Shown: positions 8,775 through 61,800 of the stretch, in pieces
Layout: the number at the start of each line of letters is the position of its first letter
How positions within the stretch are numbered: position 1 is the first letter of the stretch
Origin: Squalus acanthias
Taxonomy: Eukaryota
Length of the DNA: 64,000 nt
Direction: 5' to 3'
NCBI GenBank assembly: GCA_030390025.1
Contig: CM059432.1
Coordinates: 59,398,001 to 59,462,000 of the forward strand
Program-made: the position numbers and the translations under genes
Notes under the pieces: generated by a model
Told to the model about the DNA's origin: nothing
What the model saw: the letters and a program-made list of their open reading frames with translations, nothing else
The model's database searches: none

Positions 8775-8914
8775 TGATGCGGAGATGCCGGTGTTGGACT
8801 GGGGTGGACAAAAGTGAGAAGTCGCACAACACCAGGTTATAGTCCAACAGTTTTATTTGAAATCACAAGCTTTCGGAGCTGCTGCCCCTTCGTCAGGTGA
8901 AGTGACTTCTCACT
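8775..8914 (-). mobile_element. Penelope-like element terminal fragment with a short inverted end; 12-bp TSD TATATTTACAAA
   Basis: TSD at 8763-8774 and 8915-8926; nearly identical to 37867-37991; carries a hammerhead motif. Confidence 0.8.
8863..8900 (-). ncRNA. Minimal type I hammerhead ribozyme motif (sense to KCNQ3 intron 1)
   Basis: UCAC CUGACGA A GGGGC agca GCUCC GAAA GC UU GUGA. Confidence 0.72.
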
Positions 8915-11427
8915 TATATTTACAAAGGGAAACTAATCTGATCCAAACAACTAGAAGCCTATGAGCCTAACTTCTATATAAGTCAAAGTAATGGAAACCA
9001 TTCTAAGGGGTAGGCTTGAGTAACACACGTGTAGGAATAACCGAAGAAACAGAAAACATGGTCTTAGTAAGGAAAAGTCAAACCTAAAAACCTCTTATTT
9101 CACAATGTTTAAGTAGACAGTGGGATTTCTTATGATATGGTTTATTCCAAAGGGTTTTGATAAGGTTCTACATGAAAGATTTCTAATTGATCTAAAACCT
9201 GGGAATCCAGGATAAATTATGGGATTGGATAGAAAATTAGCTGAAGGACAGGAAACAGTGAGATTGTTTGTCAGAATAGGGGGAATTCTGCAGGAGTTAT
9301 TGCTTGAACCACTGTTGTATTTTATTTACATAAATGACCTGGAGTCAAGTGTTAGATTGTCAAATTTGTGAACAATTAAAATGGTTACAGCATTAAAATG
9401 CAATGATGCAGCAAAAGAATCTGGATTATTTATACGAACATATGGTAGATGAAATCTTACTGACAAATACATGGTGAGCCACATTGGCTGAAATAATATA
9501 CAATAATACAAAATAAATGGACTATAATTAGTGCACAGAAACTCAAAGTAGTAATACTGAACTTGACAATGTCAATGTCTAGACAATGTGATGAGTCAAT
9601 TAAAAATGCTAGCAAAATTCTGTGATATTTAGCCAGAACAGTGGTTTAAGTTTAAGGTTCTGTAATCAAGTGAAATCTGCTGTACTGATTTTCAACTACA
9701 ATCTATCTTTAGCCGTGAAGAAACTGGATTCAGACTTTATAGCCTGAATCACATAGTATAGGAGAGTATTTATTCTTCTGCTATCTGAAGACTAAGAACA
9801 CAAAAGAACTTGTCAATTCCAGGATACTACATATTGTAATGGAGCTGTCTGTTCAACCCTGTGTAAAGATGTATTACCAGATAATGTGTATGTGAAAAGT
9901 CACATTCCGATTGATAGGGGGTGAGGGCTAACGGGAGTGATCTTTGGTGCTGTGCACAAGAGAATTATCTGGTGGAAGCTTAAAAACATAACAGCTTATG
10001 AATTTGATTTCCTTTCCATTCTCATGAACAGAAACCATCATCATAGGTGCAACATGGTTTCATATTTACACTACTTTTCTGAATTTACACAATTACATTA
10101 CTTCACACTCTTCAGTTTAGTAAGTTCCAGCTGCATAAATACGGAGGAATGGCAACAGCACTACCATCCACGTAATAAATATTGAATACATTACATTGTA
10201 TATTATATTTTATTTTTAATTATACAAGAGTGTGTTCAAAGATGATGTAACGGAACCTTGCTCTCTTGACTACACACAACAGTCAAGCTTCATTTCTGTG
10301 GGTCATGATGTCACCAGATTGTGTTACACCCTTGCAACACTCCTTGACATCTATTAATCTCTCATGTTATGTTGAAAAACATAATATTTTGACTGTACTT
10401 GTACACAAGTGTAGACTCTAGTATATCAATAGGTTTAACAAAGTGTCTAAGTGGAAGACGTGTCCTTCGATTACAATGGTTAATGGGACCCGAATGATGA
10501 GAGGGCATGTTTCTCCCACCAGAAGGATATAAGGAAAGAAAGGGTAAACTTTGCTTTGGGCAAAGTGCATGCCCATATACAAAGGCGGAGGCAACATGTG
10601 CTACAATCTCTATACCTCCACACACTAGCCATTCCCATTGGAAAGTAGAGAGAAATCATTTTCTAGTGAAAGCAGAAAATTGATTTTTTTTAAAGCTGAT
10701 TAAATCTCTCTCTAAATAATATTAACTGATTTTTTAAATTGAATTTGCCTATAAATTTTCTCCCACACCTGGAGTGATTTCTTGTGTAGATGTAGGTTTA
10801 GAAGTACAAACAAAACTGTGGCAAAGTCAGTTATTGCATATCATTATCCAGGAGAATCCGCTCTCACTGGACTCCACGTTACAGCTTCACACAAGGTTCA
10901 GCAGCTTATTCCGTGACTGGTAGACCAATAATAATGCCCTGATCGTTATGGTGCCATCTAAACCTCCACCATACTGCACACCAATAGCCAAGTTCCTAAA
11001 TCAGATTTAGGTGTGGCTCTCTGGCACCAACGCACAATGTGTCCAGCAACAAAACAGATTCCCTTTTGTTATTATTTTACCTGAAATCATACAGGACTGT
11101 GCAAGAAATAACAGCATGGCGAAAGACATCGTGTGTGCATAGAATTTGACAGTTAATTATATTAAAATCATTTAAATAAAAATATATATTATATACTGAG
11201 TGAAATAAATTATAATTAACGTTTATTAACAGCGGTGACGAACGGCTGCCAAGGTTTGTGTTTGACTGACTTCAGGAGTAATACGAAGATGCCTTGTGCC
11301 AGTATTTTGGGGGTTAGACAAAGCGAGATATGGTCATTGTAATTTCATGCAACAAAACAGGAAGAAATCAGAGTGAAATCGCCCTGTTGTGCTACAAATA
11401 TGAAAGGAGGTTGCGACGAGTACTTAC

Positions 11428-16542: not shown

Positions 16543-16631
16543 TGAGAGGTCGCACAACACCAGGTTATAGTCCAACAGTTTTATTTGAAATCACAAGCTT
16601 TCGGAGCTATCGATCGCCCCTTCCTCAGGTG
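16543..16631 (-). mobile_element. Penelope-like terminal fragment inserted in a Harbinger transposase
   Basis: Same family as 8775. It interrupts the transposase between the ALNFF-like and ATGSFQ motifs. Confidence 0.8.
16591..16631 (-). ncRNA. Minimal type I hammerhead ribozyme motif
   Basis: CAC CUGAGGA A GGGGC gaucgaua GCUCC GAAA GC UU GUG. Confidence 0.68.
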
Positions 16632-25330: not shown

Positions 25331-25444
25331 GCCATTACATATTTGCTCTGCCTTCCAGGCGGACTTGTTTTTTCCTCTATATTTGGCTGTGCATCACCCC
25401 CTACTATAACTCCACTCCGTATCCCATCCCCTTGCCAAGTTAGC

Positions 25445-26391
25445 TTAAACCCCCCCCCCAACAGTACTAGCAAACCTCCCCGCAAGGATGTTGGTCCCGT
25501 TCTGGTTCAGGTGCAACCCGTCCGACTTGTACAGGTTCCACCTTCCCCAGAAGCAGACCCAGTGATCCAGGAAACTAAAGCCCTCCCTCCTGCACCAAAT
25601 CTTTAGCCACGCATTCATCTGCTCTATCCTCCTATTCCTATTCTCACTAGCACGTGGCACCGGGAGTAATCCAGAGATTACAACCTTTGAGGTCCTGCTT
25701 TTTAATCTGCTACCTAGCTCCCTAAATTCTTGTTGCAGGACCTCATCCCTCTTTCTACCTATGTCGTTGGTACCAATGTGAACCACGACCTCTGACTGTT
25801 CGCCCTCCCCCTTCAGAATGCCCTGCAGCTGTTCAGTGACATCCTTGACCCTGGCACCAGGGAGGCAACATACCATCCTGGAGTCACGTCTGCGGTCACA
25901 GAAACATCTATCTGTTCCCCTTACGATAGAATCCCCTATCACTATTGTTCTCCCACTCTTTTTCCTCCTCTTCTGTGCAGCTGAGCCACTCATAGTGCCA
26001 CGGACTTGGCCCTTGCTGCATTCCCCTGAGAAACCATCTCCCCCAGCAGTATCCAAAACGGAAAATCTGTTGGAGAGGGAGATGGACCCAGGGGACTCCT
26101 GCACTACCTTCCTAGTTCTTTTACTCTGTCTGGCGGTCACCCATTCCCTGTCTGCCTGTGCACTCTTACCTGCAGTGTGACCACCTCGTTAAACGTGCTA
26201 TCCACGAAGATCTCAGTTTCGCGGATGCTCCACAGTGACTCCAGCCGCAGCTCCAGCTCCGAAACCCGGATTTCGAGTAGCTGCAGCTGGAGACACTTCC
26301 TGCACATGTGTTCGCCCTGGATACTGAAAGTGTCCCTGACTGCCCACATAGCACAGGAGGAGCACTCCACGCTGCCGAGCTGCCCTGCCAT
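25445..26391 (-). pseudogene. CR1 ORF1: CxxC...CxxC zinc finger, leucine zipper and SGNH/GDSL esterase; one frameshift near 26140
   Basis: CSSCAMW...HMCRKC, LEIRVSELELRLESL, IVIGDSIVRG, CCLPGARVKDV, VHIGTND, DGLHLN. Confidence 0.9.
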
Positions 26392-28019: not shown

Positions 28020-28200
28020 GTGAGTATTCAACTTAGAGGCTACGACATGGTTGCCATTACTGAGACATGGCTGCAAGACGGTTAGGACTGGGAACTGAAT
28101 ATACCAGGTTATAAGGTCTACAGGAAGGATAAGGAATCTGGTAGAGGGGGAGGAGTAGCATTAGTGATTAAGGATGAAATTACTTCTATAATAAGAAATG
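28020..28200 (+). mobile_element. CR1 endonuclease fragment truncated by a Harbinger
   Basis: Reads GYDMVAITETWLQDG*DWELNIPGYKVYRKD...GGGVAL. Confidence 0.8.
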
Positions 28201-28202
28201 AT

Positions 28203-29390
28203 GGGTGCAAAATTTGGACCCGTAGTGCCTGTTTTTTGGGCGCTACGAGTGCCCCAAGAGCTCCAAAATGGCATCCGTAGCGCACCGCACACTTGTGGGG
28301 CGAATCGCAGCAAATGCTGTATTGGTGAGGGTGTTAGCATCCGCGCAGTGAATGCCCACCGGAGGTATGCAGAGCAGGCAGATCATGATGTCAATCAGCA
28401 TGCAACGCTGATTTGATGCCAGCGCTGCCATTTTGGAGCTCCATGCTCCAGCGAGCCCTCTCTTAACCTCGCACAGCTGAACACGCGTTCGGTAGCAGGA
28501 AGGAACCCTCACCAGCACTATTTAAAGGGATCATCAACTACTTATAGATAAGTTGCTGGTTGATTTCTTCTGGCTGTTGGCATGCTTCTACAAGTGTTTG
28601 GTGCTTTCTATAGTTGTTTGATGTTGCCAAAGTCTACAGGGAGGGTGTGACAGGTGCTGAAGATGTTTTCCTGAGTTCAAGGCTTCTGCACAAGCCACTT
28701 GCTGCCAGACATGGGTGCACTATAGTCAGAATTCCCCTTAGAATAGAACATGACTTGGAGAATGAACAGAGGCCACGCAGAGCAGGACAAGCTGCTGTAA
28801 GAGGGAGGAGGAGAGGATAAGGGCTCTCAGCAGGAGGCCATATCCGCCCAGGGTGTTCAGTGAGCAATTTTCCTACCTGAACCTCAGCGAGCAACAATGT
28901 GTGAGACGTCTGCGCTTCAGTAAGGACTTCCTCATTGAAATCTACCCCCTGCTGCAGCCACAACTGCAACCTCAGAGCAGGGTGACGACCGCAGTGCCAG
29001 TGACTGTGAAGATAACCATGGCCGTGAACTTTTATGCGTCGGGCTTCTTCCAGGCTGGACCTGGAGATATTTGCAACATCTCGCAGTTTGCCGTCCACTG
29101 TTGCATAAAGGAGGTCTCTGAGGCACTCTATTCAAAGAGAGCTAACTACATTTCACTCTCTCTTGCCAGAGAGCAGCATGCGGCTTTGCTAGGATTGCAG
29201 GCTTCCCCATGGTGTAGAGTGCCACTGACTGCACGCACGTCGCTTTGCAGACGCATGTACTGGAACTGAAAGGGATTTCACTCCCTCAATGTGCAGCTGT
29301 TGGGAGGCAAGGACTATCTGCTGACGACATGGCTCATGACACCGGTGCGCAACTCAGCACACGTGCACACCATGCATATAACGAACGGAG
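28203..29390 (+). mobile_element. Harbinger left end plus internally deleted transposase
   Basis: gggtgcaaaattt terminus; YLNLSEQQCVRRLRF, VKITMAVNFYASGFFQ. Confidence 0.85.
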
Positions 29391-29559
29391 TTATTATTCA
29401 CACAGCATCTTTGATTCCCTCTGTGCATGCATGCCTGTTTGGTACTGCGCTTGCGCACTCAATCCAGTCGCGCATGCGAACTCGATCCGGCCACACATGC
29501 GCAGCAACAAGCAGTGCAGGGCTGCGGCCTGCACCGCCACACTTTCCTTGGCTCCATGC

Positions 29560-29876
29560 AGAGAAGGTCAGGAGATCGGAATTGGGGGGCGGTGGGGGGA
29601 TGAGAGGGGATCGAAGTGGGGGGAGAGAGGAGAGTGGATCAAAGCAGGGAGAGAGGAGAGGGGATTGAAGGGGGGGGGGGAGAGAGGAGAGGGGATGGTC
29701 AGGAACTTGGGGGGCTGAGAAGGTCAGGAGCTCGGAGGGGGGAAGGTCAGGAACTCGGAGAGGGGGAGAAGGTCAGGAGCTGCGGCAGAGCGGGGAGGGG
29801 TCAGGAACTCGGGAGGGGGAGAAGGTGAGGAACTCGGGGTGGGGCGAAGATCAGGAGCTCGGCGGGGGAAGGTCAC
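29560..29876 (+). repeat. G-rich minisatellite, unit about 24-27 bp (gaaggtcagga(g/a)ctcgg + G-run)
   Basis: About nine recognisable units. Confidence 0.85.
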
Positions 29877-29889
29877 AAACTATAATGAT

Positions 29890-30310
29890 GACAGGTGTCT
29901 GTACCAAGCAGTTAGATTCCATGTGAGGCTTTTAGTGGGCTGATTACGGCTGTAAGTTGACAAACATTTCTAGGTGACGGCTGGGTATGTAAAGGGTACC
30001 GTGCTGTCTCTTGGACATTGATAAGAAATTCAAACACTGAATGAGAGGAGGTGCTGACATGCTTAGTACAGTGCATTCTTGGAAGGTGCAGCTGACTGCT
30101 TGCCCTGGTAAGATCACTAAATCTTTTACAGCATTGAGTTTCCATGCTTGCGGTGGCCATATTGACACTCACTGCCCTGGCCCTGTAACTCCATGCCAAA
30201 CAATGCCTCATTCCTCTCTGCATGAAGTCTGCCAAAGACTTTCACCACTTCCTCTGTTAATCTGAGTGCTCTGGACCCTTCAACAGACCTTACCGAACTG
30301 CCTGACATTC
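29890..30310 (-). mobile_element. Harbinger Myb/SANT exon-1 relic
   Basis: RALRLTEE...ERNEALFG and QCCKRFSDLTR. Confidence 0.6.
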
Positions 30311-30989
30311 TTCAAAATGGTAAACTTTGTTAGTTCTTAAACCAAAAAAGATTGTGTGTGGTGTAGTTCCTTCAAGCTACTTCCTGCCCCTAAAATAGTG
30401 AGATCTCAAATACTGGTGTTTGTAATGCTTACAGCGAACTGTTATTTTGGTAATTAGGCAGTGGGGCCAGCCTACTTCTGAGCGAATTGCGCAATGCTTT
30501 TTTTTTACTTGGGATTTCACTCAAGTGGAAAGTCTAATCTTAAGTGTTACCCATTTATGAACAAGGTTAAAATTAATACAGGAAACTAAATACAGCAACA
30601 ATGCACATATCTTTAATTAGGTTTGGACTTATTTCTGGACATTCTTCTGATTTTGAAATCTGGCCAATATGTTCAGAAGGTGATAAATGATGTAAGGGAA
30701 AATGAAATCACTTGCTTATTACACATGTATCCAACTAAATGCTACTCAGCGTTTTTTATTACATTTTTCCATACAGCACTCTATCAGTGTTATTTGGCAG
30801 TTGTGCTCTGCCAAAGTGCCACACTAAACTTAATACTTTTTTGCCAGCTCCACTTTAATAACGTTATCTGTTTCCTGTAACAGCTCTATTACCCACACAG
30901 GCCAAGATCAGGTTTCAGATAACAGGCCTCATCTTGCATTACTTCTAGTTTGAATCGGGTACAATTTTAGTCACAATTCAAGGTAAGAA

Positions 30990-31155
30990 AGGACACCAAG
31001 GTTGTGAATAGTCCGGTTCAACTTAAGACAGCAGCCAGGAAGGGGGATGAATTTGGTGGCAAGGGAATAGAGTTTGCGGGAGGGCTTGAAAATTATGCCT
31101 TTGGTCTTCCCAATGTTTAACTGGAGGAAATTGCAGCTTCTCCAGGACTGGATTC
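30990..31155 (-). mobile_element. Short L2 fragment
   Basis: ggacaccaaggttg and ttggtcttcccaatgtttaactggagg give NLGV and LQLNIGKT on the minus strand. Confidence 0.55.
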
Positions 31156-31696
31156 ACCCATAAGAAAATATTGTAATCAATGTTTTGAGCACTTGATTTA
31201 TTCTATTAAACCTATGATTAATATTAATTACTAATACAGGGACAATGCTGAACCGTGGTAATTGTCATAATTGTTGGAACCATCAATGCTAACACACTGC
31301 TTTCAAGTACAAACACACCATAGCATTGACCCACACACAATAATCCAGGCACTGGCTGCTACATCTGGATCGTACTTTTGTTGAAGTACTCTGGCTTTAA
31401 CACTTAACTTGTGGTAAAATGGCAACAAAAACAAGAATGTTGATTGAAGAGTGTGGTGTATAAATAAAGCTTATTTGTTTCATGTCTTACAAAGAATTTT
31501 GCCAGATTATTCTGCCCACCAGACAACCACCAGCCTGACACCAGTGGCATCAATCAAGCCACAGTCCATGCCAGATCTCCCTAAAGTTAGAACCTAGATT
31601 ATTCATTTGATCGGTAAATTAAAATTGATCCCACCAGAACAGAATAAAACATTTCTGGCAGGCAAAGCAAATCCAGTGGGAAGGATAACACATAAT

Positions 31697-34507
31697 GGTG
31701 CTTAAATTGGTTAGCCCCCGAAAACGGGCACAGGGTCGCGATGCATGATTAACCCGTGCCCGTTGAGTGGAATGCAGGCAGCGTGCCAACGTTGTGCTAC
31801 TTGCTCATTATAATGATTGCTGTTTACAGCCAGCGCTCCCTGCGCTGTTCATTGGCTGCACGCATCAGCAGGGGGCCCAATATCGTTATTAACTTGCACT
31901 ACTTAAAGCTAGCCTGCATTCCTTAAAAGGGGAAGTGCATTGTGGCTGGAACAGGTGCTGGGAGTCGTTCTGCAACTGAATCTGACCTGGGAAAGAGAGA
32001 AGAATGGCTGACCATGGTAGCGAGAGGGCACCTAGGTTTTCGGATCCTGGAGATCTTAGTGGAAGAGGTGGAAAGGAGGAGCGATGTCCTGTATCCACAG
32101 GAGGCCTTCCAGACACACGATGAGAAGGCAGTGGGAACAGATAGCTATGAATGGTGTAAGCACGCACTTCTTACTTTCTCCTCTCCCCTCACCACAATCC
32201 AACACTTTTTCATTTCAGATACCCAAGAACTGCAACCTGCCCAGGCAGTGGTGGAAGAGCAGGAAGACAGTGAAGATGAAGACACACCACCACTCGATTT
32301 CACAGTCGCAGCCACCAGCTCAGATACTGACACTGCGTGTAATTTAGAGGATAGCATAGAGGCGGGATCTGCACATGGTGAGAAACTAGGCATAAGTGCA
32401 CTGCAGCCAGGGCAGGGGGAAAGGAGAGCGCAGGTGCCAGCTCGCCGGAGGGCGAGGTCACACATTAGTTCTGCTGCAGAGGAGTCAGATGAGCACTTCG
32501 ATAGACCAGGGTACAGAAAAAGGCTGATGGGTGTACATACCGAAATGCTTGGTGCATTGGTAAGCCTGCCAGAAAGCCTGTGTTCAATGTCAAGGAGCAT
32601 GGAGGAGTCCAGCACCAACTTGGCACAGGGCTTTGCGCAGAGCTTGGAGCCATCCTTTCTAGCATGGAATGGGTGGTCACCTCCATCAACACACTTGTGG
32701 AACCAACCATGATGCAGCATCTGATGGCCGATATCTCAGCTTCCATTGCAGCACAAACAGCAGCCACCCAACGTCTGAATGCTGCAGTGGAAGATCAGAT
32801 TGCTGCCATCATGGCTCTGGATACTAGTGTTCAAAAGGGCTTCCAAGGTGTCACAGCAGTCCAATCCAATCTTCTCCAACAGATTACTAGGATTGCCGAG
32901 GCGCGCCCCGGGAGAGTGCCATGAAGCATGAACCTGCTGTCCTTTCTCATTCCTGCTCCCACCCCTGCTACTCCACCAGTGCCCTTGCCGTTGCCTGTCA
33001 GCCAGCCAGCCCAGACTGCTGCAGCCCAGGCCGAGACTGTGCAGTCTAAAGCCGGGCTCTCTAGGCCCAGAGCTGCTCGAGGTCGCCACCTGCAGTCTCC
33101 TCAATTGCAGGTCAGCAGCCTTCCACGCTGCAGCCACTGGTGAAGCTCCTCGTAAAACCTTCAGGACGCCAATAGTCTGATCCATCAGATTTCTTGTGGC
33201 AGCATAGCTCTCGTTGTATGCCTGCTGTGCAGGGTTGCAGACTGGAATCATGAGCCATGTCGTCAGTGGATTGCCCTTGTCGCCCAGTAGTTACCCTTTG
33301 ATTTGCCGAGGTGGTTGAAATACAGCTGGAACAGAGGACTGCTGCAGAATGAATGCCTCGTGACTGCTGCCAGGATACCGGGCATTGGCCTGCCTGAGGC
33401 CACACACTAGCTACACGTTGAGGGAGTGGAATCCCTTTCAGTTCAGGTACATGCAGAGTTGACATGAGGCACACGTAAAGCGATGTGCATGCAGTCAATG
33501 ACACCCTGTACCATGGGGAAGCCTGCAATCCTTGCAAACCCTCGTGCTTGCTCCGCCTGCTTCTCTCTGGCAAGAGGGAATGAAATGAAGTTTTCTCTCT
33601 TTGCATAGAGAGCCTCAGTGACCTCCTTATGCAGCAATGCACTGCAAACTGCGAGATGTTGCTCATATCTCCAGCAGCAGCCTGGAAGGAGCCAGACGGA
33701 TAAAAGTTCATCGCCATGGTCACCTTCACAGCCACTGGCAATGTCCTGCTCTGAGGTTGGAGTCATGGCTTCAGCAGTTAGCAGGTTTCAATGACGACCT
33801 CTTCAGTGAAGCGCAGATTTCTCAAACATTGGTCGTCACTCAAGTTAAGGTATGTGAATTGCTCCCTAAACACCCGAGGCAGATATGGCCTCCTGCTGAG
33901 AGCCCTTCTCCCCCTCTTCCTCTCTCTTCTAGCAGCTTGTCCTACTCTGCGTGGCTTCTGCTCATTCTCCCAGTCATTCTCAATGCCAAGACGTGTGGAA
34001 GCAATTGGTTTGTGCAGAAGCCTTGAAGTCAGCAGAAAAGTACTTCAGCACCTGCCAGACCACTCCCTGTAGACTTTTGAAACTTGAAACAACTATAGGA
34101 AGCACCAAAAACGTGTAGAATTGCACCATCAGCCAGAAGAAATAAACCAGCAACAAACCTGTCAGTAGTTGATGATTCCTTTACATAGCACTGGTGGGGG
34201 GTCCTTCATGCCATTGAACACATGCTCAGCTGTTGGATATTAAGAGAGGGCGCAGGCTGGTGCGTGGAGTGCCAAAATGGCAGTGCTGGCGTCAAATCAG
34301 CATTGCACGCTGATTGACGTCATGATCTGTCTGCTCTGCATGCTGCCGGAGGACATTAGATGCGCGCGCATTAACCCCTTTACCAGTATGGCGTCCGGTG
34401 CACTTCGCATCAGAAGCGTGCGCGTGCGATGTGGACGCCATTTTCGAACCTTAAGGGGCCTCGTAGCACCCAAAAAAAAGGGGTGCTACCGAGCCCAATT
34501 TCGCCTC
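31697..34507 (-). mobile_element. Harbinger element in reverse orientation, internally deleted (Myb remnant on + about 32004-33150; transposase on - about 33150-34000)
   Basis: Ends match those of 46989-48059 and 28203 in reverse complement; [23 protein letters not shown]. Confidence 0.87.
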
Positions 34508-36099: not shown

Positions 36100-36907
36100 G
36101 GGGGCGATTTTCCCAGCCCTGGGGAGGCGGGTATGGAGGCGGTACTGCCGGGAAAATGGCAGAACCTGGGAGTGGGTACCCATCCCGCCCCCAACCCGCC
36201 TCCGTGCCATCTTCCCAGGAGGCGGGTACCCGACCCGTGCCGGGTCCTGTCTCCTCGAGGCGGGAAGGGGATTAGTGCCAATTAACTGCCTGTTAACAGG
36301 TAGTTAACAGGCAGTTTTTTGGCTAATCCCTATTTTGAGCCCTAAAGTGTCAGCGAGGCAAGCCATGGGTCTGCGGGGGTCGGAGGGGCTGAAATGTCCG
36401 GTGTGCAGGTGAGTGATGAGTGCAAGTGTGGAGAGGTAAGTGTGTGAGGTGAGTGTAGAGTGTTTTAATAAGATTACTTACCTTTGCTTCTTCCTCCAGG
36501 CTTCATCCCTTTAGGCTGCGGAGCTGCCTCATCTCACCGGCAGAGAAAGCAGAATGGCCGCTGCATTCTTAAATGCAGCAGCCTTCTGCTTTCTACTCAG
36601 GAAAGCTTTCTAAGTGAGCCTGTGTCCTCGGTCTCAACTTAGAAGACAGATTGTCAGTGTTTGACAGCGTCACAGAGCTGTCAAACGATGACAATTCATC
36701 TGTCAAAAAATCTTGACAGATGAAACGTCATTCGCTGACATCATCTGTCATCAGTTTTCCCTTAATTGGCCGGCTAAGCCCGCTGGGTGGGCTTAACAAG
36801 GCCAATCAATGGAAAATAGCGTGGGTTGGCCAGACATCGATGGAGGCGGGACTAAAACCCGACAGCTTTCCTGCTTCCATCACGTCCCCATTGATACAAT
36901 CACCTCC
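36100..36907. mobile_element. MITE nested in CR1 RT
   Basis: Interrupts the CR1 frame; imperfect termini gggggcgatt and aatcacctcc. Confidence 0.75.
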
Positions 36908-37952
36908 ATGATGTCCTCTTCACAACTTGCTTTCCCACCCATCTTTGTATCACCAGCAAATTTGGCTACATTACACTCAGTCCTTTCATCCAAGTCATTA
37001 ATATAGATTATAAACAGCTGAGGCCCTAGCACTGATCCCTGTGGCACCCCACTAGTTACAGTTTGCCAACCTGAAAATGACCCATTTATCCTGACTCTCT
37101 GTTTCCTGTTAGTTAGCCAATCCTCTATCCATGCTAATATATTACCCCCAACCCCATGAGCTCTTATCTTGTGCAGTAACTTTTTATGCGGCACCTTATC
37201 GAATGCCTTCTGGAAATCCAAATACACTGCATCTACTGGTTCCCCTTTATCCACCCTGCTCATTACATTCTCAAAGAACTCTAGCAAATTTGTCAAACAT
37301 GATTTCCCTTTCATAAAACCATGCTGACTCTGCTTGACTGTATTATGATTTTCTAAATGTCCTGCTACTACTTCCTTAATAATGGACTCCAGCATTTTCC
37401 CAATGACAGATGTTAGGCTAACTGGTCTATAGTTTCCTGGTTTAAGTCTGCCTTCTTTCTTGAACAGGGGTGTTACATTTACGGTTTTCCAATCCGCTGG
37501 GACCTCTCCAGAATCCAGGAAATTTTGGTAGATTACAACCAATGCATCCACTATCTCTGCATCCATTTCTTTTAAGACCCTAGGATGCAGGCCATCAGGT
37601 CCAGGGGACTTGTCCACCTTTAGTCCCATAAGTTTGCCGAGTACTTTTTCTCTCGTGATGGTGATTGTTTTAAGTTCCCCCCTCCCTATAGCTCCTTGAT
37701 TATCTATTATTATTTTGATGCTTTTAGTGTCTTCTACCGTGAAGAACAATACAAAATATTCGTTCAAAGTCTCTGCCATTTCCCTGTTTCCCATTATTGA
37801 TTCTGCAGTCGCATCCTCTAAGGGATCAATGTTTACTTTAGTTACTCTCTCCTTTTTATATTCCTGATGTGGAGATGCCGGTGTTGGACTGGGGTGGACA
37901 AATGTGAGAAGTCGCACAACACCAGGTTATAGTCCAACAGCTTTATTTGAAA

Positions 37953-37989
37953 TCACAAGCTTTCGGAGCACTGCTCCTTCGTCAGGTGA
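37953..37989 (-). ncRNA. Minimal type I hammerhead ribozyme motif
   Basis: Mirror copy of 37995-38031 with loop II agu. Confidence 0.75.
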
Positions 37990-37994
37990 AGTCT

Positions 37995-38031
37995 TCACCT
38001 GACGAAGGAGCAGCGCTCCGAAAGCTTGTGA
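37995..38031 (+). ncRNA. Minimal type I hammerhead ribozyme motif
   Basis: UCAC-CUGACGA-A-GGAGC agc GCUCC-GAAA-GC-UU-GUGA: stem I, conserved core, stem II, and palindromic AGCU in place of stem III. Confidence 0.75.
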
Positions 38032-39800
38032 TTTCAAATAAAGCTGTTGGACTATAACCTGGTGTTGTGCGACTTCTCACATTTTATATTTCTGCAGAAG
38101 CTCTTACTATCTGTTTTTATATTTCTTGCTAGTTTACTCTCATAATCTATCTTCTCTCTCTATTATTTTTTTAGTCGTCCTTTGCTGGTTTCTAAAAATT
38201 TCCCAATCCTTTGGCCTACCACTAATCTTTGCATTATTGTATGCCTTTGTTTTCAATTTGATACCATCCTTAACTTCCTTAGTTAGCCACAGATGGTTAA
38301 TTCTTTACTTAGAGTCTTTCTTTCTCACTGGAACATATCTTTGCTGAGAGTCATGAAATATCTCCTTAAATGTCTGCCACTGCTTATCTACCATCTTACC
38401 CTTTAATCTATTTTCCCAGTCCACTTTAGCTAACTCTGTCTTCATACCTTTGTAATTGCCTTTATATAAGTTCAGGACATTAGTTTGAGACCCAAGTTTC
38501 TCACCCTCAATCTGAATTTGAAATTCTAACATGCTATGATCACTCTTCCCTAGAGGATCCTTTACTATGAGATCATTAATTAATCCTATCTCATTACACA
38601 TTACCAGATCTAAAATAGCCTGCTCCCTGGTTGGTTCCATAACGTATTGTTCTAAGAAACCATCCCAAATACACTCTATGAACTCTTCCTCAAGGCTACC
38701 TTTGCCAATTTGATTTGTCCAATCTATATGAAGATTAAAATCACCCATGATTATTGCAGTACCTTTCTTACAAGCCTCCATTATTTCTTACATTATTAGT
38801 TACAGCTTTGTTAATTTAATTTCATTAAGGGACACCCAATAAAAGTAAAACATGCTGTGAGAAGATGGAAAGGTTAGCAGATTTTCAATTTCAAAGGATC
38901 TTTTCTTGGCTATCAACATAATATTAATCAATTTAATCTGCTGAGGTAGTTCTGGGGACAGTTCTAATAAGAGAAACAACAGATATTAAATTAATCTCAG
39001 ATAGAGCATTAATCATTTTCTGAAGGAATGAACTTTCTCCTCCAATATTGATGATTCAGAATGATCAATATTTGTGTGAAAATAAGTGCCAATTTCAAAG
39101 TACAGTAAATGCAGTGAGTGAGAAATGTGCCTTTACACATTTTAATGTAATGGGATAGAAATAAAGAAATATGAACATCTATTTTTGGTGGCAGGTAAAC
39201 CATTTCACTAGTTCCCAAGCTGTGCAATTCAAGGAATAGTAAAGTTCCAGCTTCCACAGGCAAATAAATGAAGAAATTAAAGCTGAAACAAGTTTGGTTT
39301 TACATTCATGTTCAAGAAAATCTAGATGAAGCTGAGAATGTGTATGACCCTGTGTAACTGTGGCACCCTTAATGCTAATAAAAATACATAGGGGAAAAAT
39401 TCCCCATCCATAATATCCAACAAAATATCCATAATATCCAACAAAATGGTAAACATAATGCATAAGGAACATGCTTACAATTTTACTACAAATAGTGAAC
39501 AGAAGAAATCATTCTCAGTTTAATAGAAACTGCTGCAATTTATATTGTGTTCTTGTATGCTGACAAAGAACTTTGAAACTCATTTTGCAGAAGCGCCCAA
39601 TAGCTCAGCTGTTAAAGTCGCTGTCCAGCATAACAATTGATGAAGGTCTCAGAATCAATCCTCAATCTAGCTGAGCTCAGCCAAGATAGCAGTTGGAGTG
39701 CTACAATTGGACGTTGAGCTAGGGTGGTTCTGACAAAATTTAAATTGTGTCCTATTACAGAATACTTTTAATCTAATTTGAACAAATTCAACATATTGGT

Positions 39801-42654: not shown

Positions 42655-43832
42655 ATGGGGGCTATACTGGCAGTCAATCTCGCCCTCCAGGAGCTACGGC
42701 ACAGGGAGCGAAGTCAGCAGGGATGACAGAAACCTGCGTGCAGAGGGAGGAGGAGGAGGGCCATGAGGGGCTCTCAGCTGGAGGCCTTACCCACCTATGG
42801 TCTTCCGACAGCACTTCTCCTACCTACAATTAAGCGAGGAGCAGTGTCTTAGGAGGCTACGCTTCACCAAGGAGGTGGTCATAGAACTCTGCCACCTCCT
42901 TGCAACCAGACCTGCAGCCTCAGAGCAGGATGACCATGGCTCTCCCAGTGACAGTCAAAGTTACCGTGGCCCTCAATTTCCTCGCCAGCGGATCCTTCCA
43001 GTCTGCAGCAGGGGACACAGATAACATCTCACAGTTCACCGTCCATCGCTGCATCCGGGAAGTCACTGACACTTTCTGCTCCAGGAGAAGGGACTACGTT
43101 GGCTTCACTCTCAGCAGAGAGAAGCAGGACGAGCATGCATGTGGCTTTGCCAGGATAGTGGGCTTCCCCATGGTTCAGGGCGCCATCGACTACACACACG
43201 TGGCTTTGCGGGTGCTGTATAACAATCCTGAGATCTTCCGTAACCGCAAAGGCTACCACTCACTTAATGTGCAGTTGGTGTGTGACCATGCACAGCGAAT
43301 CCTCAATGTCAATGCCTGCTATCCTGGCAGCAGCCATGAGGCCTTCATCCTGCGCCAGTCCGGTGTGCTAGCAATCTTCCAGCCACCACAGCAAACTTGA
43401 GGGTGGCTGCTCTGAGACGGGGGCTATCCACTCTGCACCTGGCTCATGACTCCCCTTCACAACCCCAACACTTGTGCCCAGCACTGATATAATGAGAGCC
43501 ATGCTGCCACCAGGAACATCATTGAGCAGACCATCGGGTTACTGAAGCAATGGTTCTGCTCCCTTGACCGCTTGGGAGGAGCCCTCCAGTACTCGGCAGA
43601 GCGGGTGTCCCATCTCGTGGTGGTCTACTGCATGCTTCACAACTTGGCCATCATGAGGGCACAGCCCTTGCCACCAGGAATTGTGGGACCACCTCAAGAG
43701 GAGGATGAGAGAAAGGAGGATGAGGAGGAGAACAAAGAGCATGATGAAGAGGAGGAAGGAAGGAGGCAGGCAGCCAATAGTCCATCTGGACGGGCTGACA
43801 ATGAACTGCTCATCAGACTCCGATTTGAATGA
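42655..43832 (+). pseudogene. HARBI1-like DDE transposase (decayed)
   Basis: VTVALNFLASGSFQ, FPMVQGAIDYTHV, FRNRKGYHSLNVQLVCD, YPGSSHE, MLHNLAI and an acidic tail; several stops and frameshifts. Confidence 0.9.
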
Positions 43833-43885
43833 ATGAAACCCCAGATCCCCGTTGCTCACCAAATCCCCATCATACCATCCCTGTC

Positions 43886-45660
43886 TCACGGAATATCACA
43901 ACGCCTCTTGGGCACAAAGCTGATCTGTTGTAGCACAGATTGCTGGGCTGCTACAACATCCTGCAAGCCTTGGTCGATGGTGGTAAACCCAGCCACGATG
44001 GTCGCAGTCAGAGCTTGGGTGGCATCACACTGAGACTGCATGAGAGCTGTCTGAGTGTTGATGGCACCAAGAAGAGATTGCAGGAGAGCAGTCTGAGATT
44101 CTGCTGCAGCACTAAGATGTTGGGTTGCTTCCGCCGGTGCTGCAATGGAAGCTGCGACATCACTCCTCATGCGCACCATCACGTCTGTGGCGACACAGAC
44201 TCTCTGGGAACGTACCATCAGTTACAGGCTGGAAATCCTGGGCTCCATGCTCTGCGCAGAGCCCCGTGGAATGTTGGAGGCAGACTCCTCCATGCTCCTT
44301 AACATTGCCGAGAGGTTTGCTGGCAGTCTTGCCATTCCACCTATCAATTCTGTGTGCATGCCCATCACCCTTCTTCTGAAGGCTTCCCCATTGAGATCCT
44401 CATCGGAGTCCTGTGCAGCCAAACTCGCACGCGAACTCGCCCTCAAGGGAGCTGGCCTCCGAGCTACCCTTTCCCCCTGGCCTTGCTCGTGCTCGGTGCC
44501 TCACTTCTACACTAGGCTTTAAAGTTCGCGTAGTGCCAGTTTCTGAGCTGGTGTCTGCGAGTGACAGATGCAGTGACATAGTGTCTTTTTTCTCCTCTTC
44601 TTGTCCCCCCTGGCTCTCTGCGGTATCCTCGGGGACAGGCTGCTCGGGTGCTTGTTGATTATCTGAAAGCAGAAAGGCACAAGAGTCGGGTTATGGTGAC
44701 ATAAGAACATAAGAAATAGGAGCAGGAGGAGGCCATTCGGCCCTTCAAGCCTGCTCCACCATTCAATGAGATCATGGCTGATCTTCTGCCTCAATTCCAT
44801 TCACCAGCCCCATCACCATATCCCTTGATGTCCTTACTAGTCAGAAATCTATCGACTTCTGTTTTGAATATACCCAATGACTGAGCCTCCACAGCCCTCT
44901 GGGGTAGAGAATTCCAAAGATTCACCACCCTCTGTGTGAAGAAATTTCTTCTCATCTCAGTCCTGAATGGCCTACCCTTTAGCTTGAGGCTGTGGCCCCT
45001 GGTTCTAGACTCCCCAGCCAAGGGAAACATTCTCCCAGCATCCATCCTATCAAGCCCTGTAATAATTTTGTATGCTTCAATGAGATCCCCTCTCATTCTT
45101 CTGAATTCAAGAGAATACAGGCCTAGTTTACTCAATCTCTTCTCATAAGACAGTCCCGCCATCCCAGGAATCAATCTCGTGAACCTTCGCTGCACTCCCT
45201 CTATGGCAAGTATATCCTTCCTTAGGTAAGGAGACCAAAATTGTACACAGTACTCCAGGTGTGGTCTCACCAAGGCCCTATATAATTGGAGTAAGACTTC
45301 TTTACTCCTGTACTCAAATCCTCTTGTAATGAAGGCCAGCATACCATTTGCATTGAACAGTGTGTGAGGCTTGGGTGCAGATGGTGGTATGTGACATTTG
45401 CTGAAGCCTTCACTCACCTTGACCACCCATGTGAGGTCATTAAACTTCTTCCTGCACTGGGTGGGGTTCCTTGGGACCACAGTGCTGGCCGTGATGTTGT
45501 CTGTAATCTCCCGCCACATGGTTCGGGATGTGTAGGGCGAGGGCTTCCTGCCAGTTTGCGGGTATAGGTCCATCCAGCTCCTCTCCACCGTAATTACCAA
45601 TGCCTCTAGAGCTTCATCTGAAAACCTCCGGGCTCTCTCCCTTGGTTGAGGATTTACCAT
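43886..45660 (-). pseudogene. Harbinger Myb/SANT-like DNA-binding gene, spliced (exon 45660-45418; last exon from 44662)
   Basis: RERARRFSDEALEALV...WREI...RNPTQCRKKFNDL; AAG|gtgagt donor and tttctgctttcag acceptor. Confidence 0.85.
44700..45352 (-). mobile_element. CR1 3' fragment nested in a Harbinger Myb gene
   Basis: LYRALVRPHLEYCVQFWSP...FFTQRVVNLWNSLP; cataagaacataagaa tail. Confidence 0.92.
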
Positions 45661-46988
45661 CACAATTTCTAAATAAATCTTGCTTGTCCTTCACCTTCTT
45701 CTGTTTGTTGTTGGGGCAGCTGAAGACCCAACCACCCTGATAATGAGGTGCTGCAGCATTAATGCACTTTCTCTTTAAGTAGTGGAAAAAACCTATGGCA
45801 AACATGACTGTGAATTAGACTGGCCCTGATATTGGTCCACCTGTTGAGCATTAAGCCAAGGAGCATCAGTTTTAGCACTGAAATCATGACTATGATCATG
45901 TTAATGAAGAGTGAGCATGAATTTTGCGTGCTACCTAGACCATTTTCAGGTGGCATAGCTTAACCTCATTTAGTCTTAACACTGCCCATTTTGTGGCTAT
46001 ACCCAATCTTTAGCCCAATATTTCTAAGTTGCTAGGATCAGGTTATCAAGGGTTAAAATAATATTACCCAAGGTTTCTCGGGGGAATGGAATCATAGCTG
46101 CCCACCGAGCAATTAAACTGCTTAATTATGCAAGTTACAGAAACTTGAAACAATGGGCAGAGCCCCCAGGAGATCAGTTAGCTGAAATAGTCATATCACT
46201 GATAAGCTTCTTGGGAAATGAATAAAGGCGATTTCCTTTGTCCTCACTCAAAGCTGGTGCAGCATCCATTGTGGGTGAACTAAATTATGAAAGATATTGT
46301 CCACCTGTAGACTTAAGGCAAGAGAAAGAGAAGTCTCTCTGTCACTCTCTGCTGGACAGTTGTGAAATTAGCGGGCAGCAGCAGAAAATTTTCTGCACAT
46401 TAAAGGGTGGATTTTCACCGAGCCAAATCAGCATTAATGGTAATGGTTTCAAAATGACTTACTGCCCCGTTAACGCTACTGCTATTTTTAAAGAGACATT
46501 ACTTTGAACGGCCGAAGCGTCCACCTGTTTCAGGTGGTAGGCCTCTTGATTAAGCAAATCCGGGTCCTATCACGTAATTAGGACCCCAGTTGCAATTTTT
46601 AGGGAGTGTTCCTTCTGGCGCCACTAAAATATTGGAGGTCACTGCTGGCCCAGACTTGCCCCCTCAACCTCCCTGCGTTCGCCTCCCTGTGGACCTACCT
46701 ATGGGTTGGTGCGTCATCTGAGCCACTTGGTCTAAATCAACTTAGCTTTGAATAGCTTAGCTAGACAAGTGAGCCTACATTTACAGAGTTAGTAAGTTGC
46801 ATTTTTATTATTTTTCAAAATAGATCCCTGGGTTATGCTATCATTTAACTAGGTAATGGGAAGTAAAAGGTGCACTTCCAAATTACAGAGGCACAAGGCT
46901 CGTTTATGGGAGTGACCGGTGATGCTGAACCTGAAAGAATATCAAGTGCAAAAACCCAAAAATAGTGGCACAATGAAATCTTACACAT

Positions 46989-48059
46989 AGGGTGAGAAAC
47001 GGGGCTCTGTAGCACCCATTTTTTAGGTGCTACGTGGCCTCCTGATGGTCGAAAATGGTGTCCACAATGCACGCGCACACTTCCAATGGGAAGTGTGCCC
47101 GATGTAACCTTGGTAAAGGGGTTTGCGCATGTGCACCTAATGACTGCCGGCAACATGCAGAGCAGGCAGATTATGACGTCAATCAGTATGCAATGCTGAT
47201 TTAATGCCAGCGCTGCCATTTTCGAACGCCACGCACCAGCCTATGCCCGGTCTTAACCTCGCACAGCTGAACACAACATTAAACGGAATGAAGGAGCTCC
47301 CATCAGCGCTACTTAAAGGGATCATTAACTACTTACAGGTTAGTTGCTGGATTATTTCTTCTGGATGTTGGTGCAATTGTATGTGTTTTTGAAGCTTTCC
47401 TGTACTTGGCTAAAGTTAGAATAGTCTACAGGGAGTGGTCTGGCTGGTGTTGAAGTACTTTTGTGTTGATTTAAAAGCTTGAACAGTGGATGAGATGGTG
47501 TAGTTGGTAGAATATGCCATTTGAAGATGAACTTACTCACCTTCACAACTTATGTGAGATCATTAAACTTCTTCCTGCACTGCATCCAGGTTCTAGGGGC
47601 AACACTCGTGGCATTGACCTCCACCACTACTTGTTCCCACTGCCTCCTGAGCATGTGTCTGGAGGGCCTCCTGACCCCCTGTGGACACAGGACATCTCTC
47701 CTCCTTTCCACCTCTCCCACCAAGGCCTCCAGTGCATTATTGGAAAAAGTTGATGCACGCTCTCTTGCATGTTCAGCCATTCAGTTCATAAAGGACTCCC
47801 ACCACCTATTCCAGCCACAATGTACCTCTCCTTTAAGAGGTGCAGGCTGCCTTTAAGTAGCGCTAGGCACTCGCCATATCAGGCCCCCTGCTGATGCGTG
47901 CAGTCAATGAACAGCACGGGTAGCGCTGGCTGCACACAGCAATCATGTAAAACAGGCAGCACAAATTTACCGTGCTGCCTGCAACGCAACGAACGGGTGC
48001 AGGTTAATCACGCACCGCGATCCTCGCGCCAGTTTTTGGGTCATACCCAATTTAACCCC
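46989..48059 (+). mobile_element. Non-autonomous deletion derivative of the same Harbinger family, TSD CAT, retaining Myb exon 1
   Basis: Both family ends present; cat flanks at 46986-88 and 48060-62; MAEHARERASTFS...QCRKKFNDLT at 47780-47550(-). Confidence 0.85.
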
Positions 48060-48864
48060 CATTGTACTCCCAAAGAACATGCAGCAAATTACTCTCTACA
48101 AAAGCTAAGCTGTCATCTTTTGACCCCTTCCCAACACTTGTTACCTTTCCACATCCCTTCCCAACAAGCATTGTCTGCATTAAGGAATAATAAAGTGATC
48201 GTAACTAATTTTCTGTAATCTACATTAATGAAGACCTTTAAGTACCACCATCATGCTTTCCCTCAGTGACAATATAAGGTGTACCTCTCCTATTGCATAA
48301 CCTGGTGCTATGTCTAAATGCTCCATGAGAGGAGGAACAACTTCGTTATTGCAATGTATGACAAATTGGATTTTGCCTGGGTTGCTTGGTAGAATACAAT
48401 ATAATAGCAATGTATCCTCTCCCCCACTTCTCCCATCCCATTGCAATAACATAACCACTAATTTCTCATCAGCAATGTCATGGGAGATCTGCTAGTAATA
48501 AAAAGTAAATTAAAGCCATTAAGCCTAAAAAATGAGGCTTACTAATCAAAACGTTGGTGCTCTCGGGTGCAGTTGAAAACACTAACCCATGGTAATATTT
48601 AATAACCCTGATAAAACTGAAATTGTGTATAATAAAAACAAATTTTAAATGCTCCAATATTCACGAAAAAGAACCTGTGAGGATGGAAGGGCACTTGATG
48701 CTTAGCTGGAAGCAAGATAATTACATTTAACGTTGCTATTTTCTTCCAGTAATAAGTCTGTAGCACCAGAGCAAGCATTTTCCATGCTGAAGCACATCCA
48801 CTAATTTAAGCAGCTGTGTAAGTAAGCCTTGTATAGAGCAATTCTAACTTGGCATTTAAGAAAG

Positions 48865-60500: not shown

Positions 60501-61800
60501 CACTGGCGGAGTGACAGGGGTGGAAGGAGGTGCTGTCATCCTGAGAAAGGATAGCAGATTCGTGCTCCACGGAGCCACTGTCACTACCCTGAGGTGGCAC
60601 CTTAGCAATCCTAGTAATCTGTTGGAGGAGAGATTGCTGGACTGCTGTGACACCCTGCAAGCCCCTTTGAACACTGGTATTTGCTGCCACGGCAGCATGC
60701 TGAACTTGCATGAGAGCAGTCTGAGCTTGCATGGCAGCAAGCTGACCTTGCATGACAGAAGTCTGAGCTTCCACTGCAGCACTCAGACATTGGATGGCTT
60801 CTGCTGTGCTGCACTGGAACCTGAGACATCAAACGCTGCACCATTTTTGATTCTGCAGGTGTGCTAATGGAGTTGGCCACCACTTCTATGCTTGAAAGGA
60901 TGGGCTCCAAGCTCGGCGGAAAGCCCTGTGCCAAGTTGGTGCCTGACTCCTCCATGCTCCTGCCAATGCACCAAGCATTTCATTGTGCACACCCATCAAT
61001 GTTCTTCTGTCTGCCGCCCTATCGAAGTGCGCATCTGCGTCCTCTGCGGCAGAACTCGTGTACGACCTCACCCTCCAGCAAGCTGCCACCTGCACTACCT
61101 TTGCCCCCTGCTCTGGCTGCAGGCCACTTGTGCCCGGTGTCTCACCATGTGCAGACCCCACCTCTAAGCTATCCTCTAAATTACGCGCAGTGTCAGTATC
61201 TGACCTAGTGGCAGCGAGTGTGAAATCGAGTGACGGTGTTTCTTTTTCATCGCTGTCTTCCTGCTCTTCCACCTGTTGCGCTTCCACCATTGCCTGGCCA
61301 GGTTACAGTTCTTGGGTATCTGAAAGGAGAAAGGCACAAGGGTAGGGTTGTGGGGAGGCGAGGGGTGGGGGGGAACAAGAGGTGCATGCTTACAGCATCT
61401 GCACCTTGTAAATCAGAAGAGATTGTGGAATGAGGGGGATGTGGGATATGAGAGGATACCGTCATCTTCAATGGTTTCAGCCCTGCCGCTGGCCACAGCC
61501 TCAGCGATGGCCGCTTGAATGATGGCGACCACCATCTCCTCCATCGGGGTAAGGACGTGCAGCCATGCCTGTCCCGTCAGTTAGCTGCGGCTGTCTCCGG
61601 TTAAGCGTCAACTTGTTCTGCGAGAGGGAAGTGTGTCAGTGAGTATAGTGCAATCGGTTTGGGTGATGTGCCTGTCATGGTTGAACAGCTGGCAGTGTGT
61701 GCAAGCTGTGAGATGTGGGTGTGAGGCTTGCAGCAGTGTGTGAGGGTGAGGTGAAGCTATGAAAGTTAGGTGAGTCCTGATTGATAGATTGTTGGATGCT
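57588..61800 (+). mobile_element. Harbinger element in the DNAAF11 last intron (transposase on +, split by a CR1; Myb exons 2-3 on -)
   Basis: ggctgcaaaattt terminus; YLNLSEGKCVRSLCF, MLHNLA; Myb-gene last exon 61319-60246. Right end not found. Confidence 0.85.
58416..59613 (-). mobile_element. CR1 3' fragment nested in a Harbinger transposase, TSD TTTTAT
   Basis: GVPQGSVLGPLLF, FADDTKLGG; tacatagga repeated tail; ttttat at 58410-58415 and 59614-59619. The host ORF resumes exactly after the second copy. Confidence 0.92.

Follow-up and report, generated by a model that had tools for sequence, protein, structure and literature searches.

The locus and its setting

The 64-kb stretch of DNA analyzed here, called the window below, is rich in repeats. 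Pfam matches were obtained in 13 of the 23 open reading frames (ORFs) scanned in it, and they include reverse transcriptase (RT), endonuclease and esterase domains of LINEs together with Harbinger-type DDE and Myb domains. One old LINE ORF2, of a clade that we take to be CR1, is interrupted by a long palindrome (Table 1).

The inverted arms of the palindrome, at 37900-37991 and 37993-38084, are 92 nt each and are arranged around the single base T37992. They differ at one position, A at 37970 against C at 38014, inside loop II of the ribozyme motif described below; this is a CG/TG change, which can post-date the insertion. Under a rule of at most one mismatch and a spacer of at most 10, the runner-up inverted repeat in the window is 15 bp. 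The left arm is extended by a tail of 35 nt that lies outside the inverted repeat. The whole insertion amounts to 220 bp and codes for no ORF, and on each strand a match to the hexamer AATAAA stands 3′ of the hammerhead motif. The insertion is bounded by a target-site duplication (TSD) of 13 nt with one mismatch (TTTTATATTCCTG on the left, TTTTATATTTCTG on the right), whose left and right copies share 2 nt and 3 nt, respectively, with the ends of the element. The score of this duplication was reached by 0 of 2000 random position pairs, in a null drawn without matching of AT content. The AT fraction of the flanks is 0.65 at the palindrome, and 0.75 and 0.60 at copies B and C described below, against 0.555 for the window.

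The arms, the centre, the mismatch in loop II, the one-sided tail, the two hexamers, the absence of an ORF and the AT-rich TSD had all been claimed in an initial annotation of this DNA, and each is present in the sequence. The start had been placed at 37867, and the insertion begins 2 nt further left, at 37865. It had also been called young; with two differences among 105 duplicated positions, one in the arms and one in the TSD, it is so in a relative sense only.

The two parts of the interrupted ORF2 are collinear. By tblastn against the other LINE of the window, the RT part gave 50% over 337 aa and the endonuclease part 33% over 215 aa. The LINE match ends at 38146, in the endonuclease, and restarts at 37857, in the RT; the gap between them is the insertion with its duplication, and the R-N-I-K codons of the CR1 frame occur on both sides of it. 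No empty site was found by blastn among the other LINE copies of the window, and collinearity at the protein level was used instead.

Table 1. Positions of the insertion, its parts, its host LINE and the two further family copies in the window.
Feature	Position	Strand	Basis or remark
Copy B, full unit with tail, then 12-nt inverted arm	8775..8915	-	perfect 12-nt TSD, 8763-74 / 8915-26
Copy C, single unit without tail, longer loop II	16543..16631	-	alignment to other units
RT part of decayed, presumably CR1-type LINE ORF2	36868..37857	-	Pfam RVT_1, E 1.5e-26
TSD, left copy, 13 nt, AT-rich	37854..37866		last 2 nt common with element end
35-nt tail, 3′ extension of this arm only	37865..37899	-	contig loose ends at 37865
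First PLE terminal unit copy, sense on minus strand	37900..37992	-	5′ end at A of 37992
AATAAA hexamer, 3′ of minus-strand hammerhead	37942..37947	-	sequence match
Minimal type I hammerhead motif, without helix III	37953..37989	-	sequence and motif scan; predicted cut 37957/37956
Unpaired centre base, head-to-head junction of two 5′ ends	37992..37992		contig centre variants
Second unit copy, inverted, without tail	37993..38084	+	loose ends at equivalent positions 37895-37905
Minimal type I hammerhead motif	37995..38031	+	motif scan; predicted cut after 38027
AATAAA hexamer, 3′ of plus-strand hammerhead	38037..38042	+	sequence match
TSD, right copy	38082..38094		first 3 nt common with arm end
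Endonuclease part of same LINE ORF2	38146..38787	-	Pfam Exo_endo_phos_2, E 6.5e-06, just under cut-off

Other copies in the window

Two further copies of the family are present in the window. The 5′ end of copy B is at the same base as that of the palindrome units, and its 12-nt arm ends at the inner site, which corresponds to the outer end of the tail-less arm of the palindrome. Relative to the 5′ end of the other copies, the start of copy C is displaced 4 nt downstream, and no TSD was found around it. The inverted second arm thus measures 92, 12 and 0 nt in the three copies, and the inverted head-to-head arrangement is seen in two of the three. Four of the five unit 5′ ends lie within the equivalents of 37988-37992, immediately 5′ of the ribozyme; the ribozyme cut site coincides with none of the five. 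At three positions the two arms of the palindrome have the same variant and copy B a different one.

The hammerhead motifs

A minimal hammerhead had been claimed for each strand, with a predicted cut at 38027 on the plus strand, and the candidate motif was found in both places. On the plus strand, stem I consists of 4 bp (TCAC 37995-98 with GTGA 38028-31) and stem II of 5 bp (GGAGC 38007-11 with GCTCC 38015-19); the core is made up of CTGACGA (37999-38005), one extra A, and GAAA (38020-23). The self-complementary AGCT at 38023-26 occupies the place of a would-be helix III. The mirror image reads on the minus strand from 37989 to 37953, and each motif points outward from the centre. The earlier description of these ribozymes as complete holds for the minimal type only, for helix III is absent.

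The motif with stems I and II occurs in all four aligned units, where 35 of 36 cells are paired. Among the nine stem pairs, counted in only four sequences, there are no double changes and there is one A-U/G-U change. The differences within the ribozyme are at N7, at that one stem II pair, in loop II and, in copy C, at the first base of stem I, which is also where copy C begins. The sequence 3′ of the ribozyme is conserved as much as the core. With no double changes and equal conservation downstream, conservation of the motif is no independent proof of selection.

An Rfam search of the whole window gave no family at gathering score. At E up to 10 there were ten sub-threshold matches around the locus, none of them to a hammerhead model, and the ribozyme call therefore rests on motif and context. 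The best of the sub-threshold matches are to generic miRNA-hairpin models; a miRNA reading was dropped, these being generic hairpins.

Contigs from public runs

A total of 21 runs in nine studies were listed, and the contigs of four public runs were aligned to 37640-38008. Three of these runs are DNA-type or unlabelled (X1, X5 and X6); two studies of organism A and a single study of organism B supplied them, and X1 is possibly the window’s own sample. The fourth, X16, with 2,029 contigs, is RNA by guess and was excluded from arguments on expression. From the three DNA-type or unlabelled runs 17,860, 11,045 and 6,242 contigs were aligned, and the summed depth of the unit was 16, 44 and 4 times that of the LINE flank; summed contig depth is not copy number, and these values support the word abundant and nothing beyond it.

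Among the loose ends listed, those with long unrelated flanks (agreement 0.36-0.44) cluster at 37865-68 and at 37895-905. Among those listed there were at 37865 140 such contigs in X1, 115 in X5 and 51 in X6, the last run having 60 more at 37868; between 37895 and 37905 the corresponding counts were 45, 66 and 42 in X1 and 20 and 34 in X5. The two junction clusters, 30-40 nt apart, are the two ends of the palindrome insertion. A shared continuation beyond 37992 was found in 41 contigs of X6 (agreement 0.9), 44 of X1 (0.54) and 19 of X5 (0.51), and longer copies of the element therefore exist; the upstream consensus beyond 37992 covers 30 letters. The peak of loose ends at 37992 itself is uninformative on the clustering of 5′ ends, since the query leaves the parent there in any case. 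Clustering of the 5′ ends rests on the three window copies and a few joints. Of the three variants shared by the arms of the palindrome, two account for about 34% and 48% of the depth in X1, which fits one template family.

Depth at 38004-08 was 1.2%, 1.1% and 0.06% of the pre-centre bin in the three runs, so that contigs do cross a centre of this kind. The centre was 3 nt shorter in 14 contigs (nine in X1, four in X5 and one in X6). An inverted arm made of the tail only, with the joint 37901/37992, was seen in one contig each of X1 and X5, and in one X5 contig 37992 was joined head to tail to 37865 with 24 letters between them.

These data bear on the possibility that the palindrome is an artefact of assembly or of library preparation, which is hardly credible. 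Palindromes are difficult to assemble, no listed contig spans the whole aligned stretch, and none of those listed spans the palindrome locus from end to end. Against this, there is a one-base difference between the arms, both a TSD and a tail are present, the flanks are a collinear LINE, and contigs that cross the centre occur in runs of the two organism A studies and of the organism B study. As far as it can be tested in this way, the palindrome is not an assembly artefact.

Pattern scans for relatives of the unit gave 0 and 0 loci in viral contigs, 0 and 7 in metagenomes, and 0 and 8 in prokaryote genomes. In each of the 15 metagenome and prokaryote loci the match extends over no more than 19-23 nt of the unit, and all were set aside as chance.

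Identity of the insertion

The palindrome is almost certainly one insertion of an endonuclease-positive (EN+) Penelope-like element (PLE) of which the terminal unit, or pLTR, was copied twice. This identification follows from the head-to-head inverted pLTR, the one-sided tail, the target duplication and the minimal hammerhead. Each of the four testable features of such insertions was found: the minimal hammerhead, the tail with two 3′ ends, the inverted head-to-head copy and the AT-rich TSD. The outer end of the tail at 37865 would be one of two start sites of reverse transcription, and the outer end of the tail-less plus arm would be the inner one.

The initial proposal of a PLE origin with an inverted arrangement matches the published signature. 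In the available text of these papers, EN+ PLE insertions have a 5′-truncated terminal unit adjoined by an inverted head-to-head pLTR, with a 31-bp tail and a TSD of 8-10 bp (PMC3846280) and a tail of 30-40 bp at one end (PMC8557442; see also PMC8969392), and both solo minimal hammerheads and pairs on opposite strands are noted along with the description of the motif (PMC4209133). The arrangement is thus already published, both as paired opposite-strand minimal hammerheads (PMC4209133) and as inverted pLTRs that meet head to head and come with a tail and a TSD (PMC3846280; PMC8557442). The palindrome is real but ordinary, and its structure would not surprise a specialist. A search of mainly open-access literature returned no paper that treats the family of this unit or reports 5′ ends at a fixed place ahead of the ribozyme. 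The word shark in PMC6155905, in the text available, denotes a motif shape only. The window was also inspected in all six reading frames for motifs of an RT/GIY-YIG ORF belonging to the unit, and none was found.

The description of the palindrome as a cassette was not supported. The lengths of the arms and the centres vary between copies, in the window and among the contigs, and the mirror half was therefore most likely made anew at each insertion, not inherited as a cassette.

An inverted repeat with a target duplication would also be expected of a MITE or fold-back DNA transposon with long terminal inverted repeats. Such an origin deserves almost no weight: the tail lies outside the inverted repeat and makes the termini asymmetric, copies with a single arm (C) or a 12-nt arm (B) exist, and 5′ truncation and two 3′ ends are traits of retroelements. 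Two classes of short repeat were also considered and rejected. For a tRNA-derived SINE, ARAGORN returned 0 genes in the window and there was no Rfam match; for a non-LTR retrozyme, the pair here is inverted and the other window copies are single, not tandem units.

Formation of the insertion

The best overall explanation of the locus is a single retrotransposition event, and this is very likely what took place. Much of the detail can be modelled on PAc of Anolis carolinensis. According to the available text of PMC11167929, the PAc protein nicks and extends both target strands and prefers AT-rich sites, reverse transcription begins internally, at two sites between which the tail lies, and insertion does not depend on the hammerhead, which cleaves only with the protein.

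By such a pathway the GIY-YIG endonuclease of the element would nick AT-rich DNA at staggered positions separated by about 8-13 nt. The left target strand would prime reverse transcription at the outer start, at the end of the tail, and the right target strand at the inner start, each priming being aided by 2-3 nt of microhomology. Both cDNAs would end at one common stop immediately upstream of the hammerhead, and they would be joined head to head at their far ends. The common stop would be the 5′ end of the RNA, the unit would be the leader of the parent element, and the cDNAs would be run-offs. Twin priming of both target strands is probable, if by no means certain; the reading of the common stop as the RNA 5′ end, with the unit as the parent’s leader, is an evenly balanced proposition.

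The alternative put forward in published accounts is self-priming, possibly on an antisense template (PMC3846280; PMC8557442), and PMC3846280 attributes junction palindromes to self-priming on an antisense template, not to twin priming. Applied to this locus, one cDNA would fold back on itself, and the endonuclease would resolve the resulting hairpin at the inner site, so that the tail is left over. The arms are nearly identical and share diagnostic variants, as fold-back demands and as twin priming allows too, and their lone difference, being a CG/TG change, may be later than the insertion. A fold-back, however, copies the sequence next to the turn, whereas the 12-nt arm of copy B and the tail-only arm come from the far end; an extra jump would be needed for these, which a shared 5-mer could allow in copy B. 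In vitro, moreover, both strands were extended from both start sites (PMC11167929). Self-priming is regarded as somewhat unlikely. Two primings are favoured because the short arms of copy B and of the tail-only joint are anchored at a start site and not at the turn.

Several other readings were rejected. Ribozyme cleavage accounts for none of the five 5′ ends in the window, and a joint at the cut site (37956) was seen in one X5 contig only. A splice acceptor at the 5′ end would require an AG at the boundary, which the upstream consensus lacks. Fold-back on a short CTTC/GAAG stem near the end would give asymmetric arms.

The initiator consensus is YYANWYY. When the upstream consensus is added, the centre base becomes the A of an initiator-like word, a weak match of a kind expected about 1 time in 32 by chance. 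At the other end, the consensus beyond the end of the tail reads into an ATG in three runs of organism A. The fixed 5′ ends, the initiator-like word and the ATG beyond the tail suggest that the unit is a leader and the cDNAs are run-offs.

In its fullest form this proposal would make the 128-nt unit exactly the leader of the parent mRNA, running from an initiator 3 nt upstream of stem I to a start codon at the end of the tail. The internal start of reverse transcription would lie inside the leader, and the resulting run-off cDNAs, of fixed length, would be joined as hairpins by a dimeric enzyme that primes on both target strands. This remains tentative, at somewhat less than an even chance. 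If true, the family would mass-produce ribozyme palindromes as a by-product and would be a genome-wide source of dsRNA, and with so many copies it would offer a natural data set for telling twin priming from self-priming. No paper was found in the literature search that states this leader and run-off reading.

The abundance of the unit and its recurring 5′ end could also point to a self-propagating, non-autonomous mini-element, akin to a SINE or a retrozyme, in which the 128-nt unit or the whole palindrome is transcribed from an internal promoter of its own and is mobilized by the PLE protein. Penelope of D. virilis has an internal promoter and a 34-bp repeat at the start of its ORF (PMC2377424), non-autonomous derivatives of PLEs exist (PMC8557442; bioRxiv 10.64898/2026.07.22.740005), and the one X5 contig with a head-to-tail joint of 37992 and 37865 would be in keeping with this. 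Such a mini-element is nevertheless quite improbable. There is no tandem array, no helix III and no tRNA-derived head (0 genes by ARAGORN), the ends are off the ribozyme cut site, and longer sequence exists upstream; the variation in centres and arms means that the palindrome is not copied whole.

Folding and predicted ribozyme activity

The initial annotation had proposed that self-cleavage and formation of the long hairpin would compete in transcripts of either strand. The folding computations do not favour this. In read-through RNA from either side the antisense arm is synthesized first, the hairpin is computed to be favoured by 58-62 kcal/mol, and nascent read-through RNAs are computed as already paired to their last bases. 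For read-through RNA, the computed probability that stems I and II form while the core stays free is about 1e-41 (plus strand) and 1e-44 (minus strand), compared with about 2-3e-4 for RNAs that start at the centre. Read-through RNA is predicted to fold into a 92-bp hairpin without self-cleavage.

Ribozymes of this minimal type are reported to need a dimer or the protein of the element for activity, and in the available text of PMC4209133 a minimal hammerhead monomer did not cleave in vitro. Each read-through RNA from the palindrome holds one sense ribozyme only. Pairing as a dimer would be open only to divergent RNAs that start at the centre, where the other arm now stands in place of the upstream sequence.

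A functional switch made of two ribozymes, with self-cleavage set against formation of the hairpin, would agree with the intact state of both cores and with the location of the one mismatch in loop II. Intact cores, however, are expected from low age alone, and the locus lies inside a dead LINE. The computed energy of the hairpin, the early synthesis of the antisense arm on both strands, the single sense ribozyme in each RNA and the inactivity of the tested minimal monomer (PMC4209133) also count against a switch, which is a remote prospect. On these predictions the ribozymes in the palindrome are passengers, and the locus very probably does nothing as a ribozyme.

Significance

The locus is a dead repeat that sits within another, and it is very probably functionless; if it were transcribed, it would yield a 92-bp hairpin. 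The family is of modest interest, as the origin of the inverted repeats and tails of PLEs is still unsettled. Short, well-preserved insertions, with both junctions, a TSD and a clean centre, record the copying reaction directly, and the main use of the palindrome is as a record of how PLEs copy themselves.

Comparison with known systems

The following comparisons are with the available text of the papers cited. The motif resembles the hammerheads in the pLTRs of metazoan PLEs (PMC4209133) in its CUGANGA/GAAA core, the extra base before stem II, the G10.1-C11.1 pair, a palindromic 15.2-16.2, a helix I of 4 bp and the absence of helix III, and in being mostly solo. Stem II has 5 bp here as compared with 7-8 bp in the schistosome families, and the cores of the paired hammerheads are 13 bases apart here as compared with about 100-700 bp in that study. 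Sharks are not named in the available text of PMC4209133.

Non-LTR retrozymes (PMC7229834; bioRxiv 10.64898/2026.07.22.740005) are likewise short and non-coding, carry a type I hammerhead and are related to PLEs. They are, however, head-to-tail tandem repeats that are processed into circles, whereas the palindrome is an inverted pair with no release of a monomer.

PAc, a Poseidon-type PLE of Anolis carolinensis (PMC11167929), shares with the unit two 3′ ends that bound a tail, an AT-rich target, start sites that lie downstream of hammerhead stems I and II, and ends that are not at the ribozyme cut site, as judged here from the three window copies. The ORF of PAc starts at stem II, whereas the unit described here lacks an ATG, and the loose ends hint at one at the end of the tail.

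Pen2a and Pen2 of Adineta (PMC3846280; scheme in PMC8557442) differ in having an ORF between the repeats; at the present locus there is none, the inverted units meet directly, and the total is 220 bp. In other respects the likeness extends to the head-to-head inverted terminal unit, the one-sided tail of 30-40 nt, a TSD of similar size, a palindrome at the junction, a retroelement as the target, and an initiator-like word in the pLTR.

Other copies and repeats in the window

Two further copies of the Penelope-like element (PLE) terminal unit, B and C, are listed below with the other repeats. The junction of copy B is a small palindrome, and it has two bases in common with the upstream sequence of the parent, full-length PLE. 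The 8-nt loop II of copy C contains a palindromic stretch; no target-site duplication (TSD) was found for this copy, which is positioned upstream of a Harbinger-type DDE fragment. The numerous Harbinger-type fragments in the window are interrelated, being 65-79% alike, and the two clusters of short inverted repeats probably belong to a Harbinger-derived non-autonomous element. ORF2 of the near-complete LINE is interrupted by one stop.

Copies of the PLE unit and other repeats, with their positions
Feature	Position	Strand	Description
Copy B	8775-8915		Complete PLE unit, inverted arm of 12 nt, perfect 12-nt TSD
Copy C	16543-16631		PLE unit without tail; loop II of 8 nt
DDE fragment	16874-17263		Harbinger-type
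LINE, near-complete	22505-26188	-	Esterase (GDSL) ORF1; endonuclease-RT ORF2
Harbinger-type fragments	28200-34500, 42700-48100, 57600-61400	both	DDE_Tnp_4, Myb/SANT
Inverted repeats, clustered	36276-36323, 36650-36758		Short, imperfect, 18-28 nt
Tandem duplication	39406-39447		21 nt, perfect

Contig depth and A>G differences

Relative to the unit, contig depth crossing the centre of the palindrome (38004-38008) was about 100-fold lower in run X16 than in X1 and X5, and the ratio of unit depth to that of the LINE split by the insertion was 263 in X16 vs. 16 in X1 and 44 in X5; these are contig data from a run whose RNA nature is unconfirmed, and the X16 figures are not readable as expression. 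At 37924, 37929 and 37952, A>G differences reached 1.1%, 4.0% and 0.7% in X16, guessed to be an RNA run, compared with 0.07-0.6% in the DNA runs X1 and X5. This excess offers no more than a hint of A-to-I editing of hairpins, of which such a pattern is expected, but A>G stood at 6.1% at 37952 in a further run, X6, two other A>G sites had no X16 excess or a reversed one, and the runs come from different animals.

Sequence beyond the tail and at the centre

Past the end of the 35-nt tail (37865), the consensus of loose ends terminates in an identical five letters in X1, X5 and X16. Read on the sense strand, these letters run into an ATG, which may be the start codon of the parent PLE or part of a recurrent neighbouring element. 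At 37992-37993, on the - strand, a G precedes the 5' A in place of the pyrimidine of the upstream consensus. This G is compatible with a cap-templated base that pairs with the second cDNA's end, but it could equally be no more than the base with which the other arm begins.
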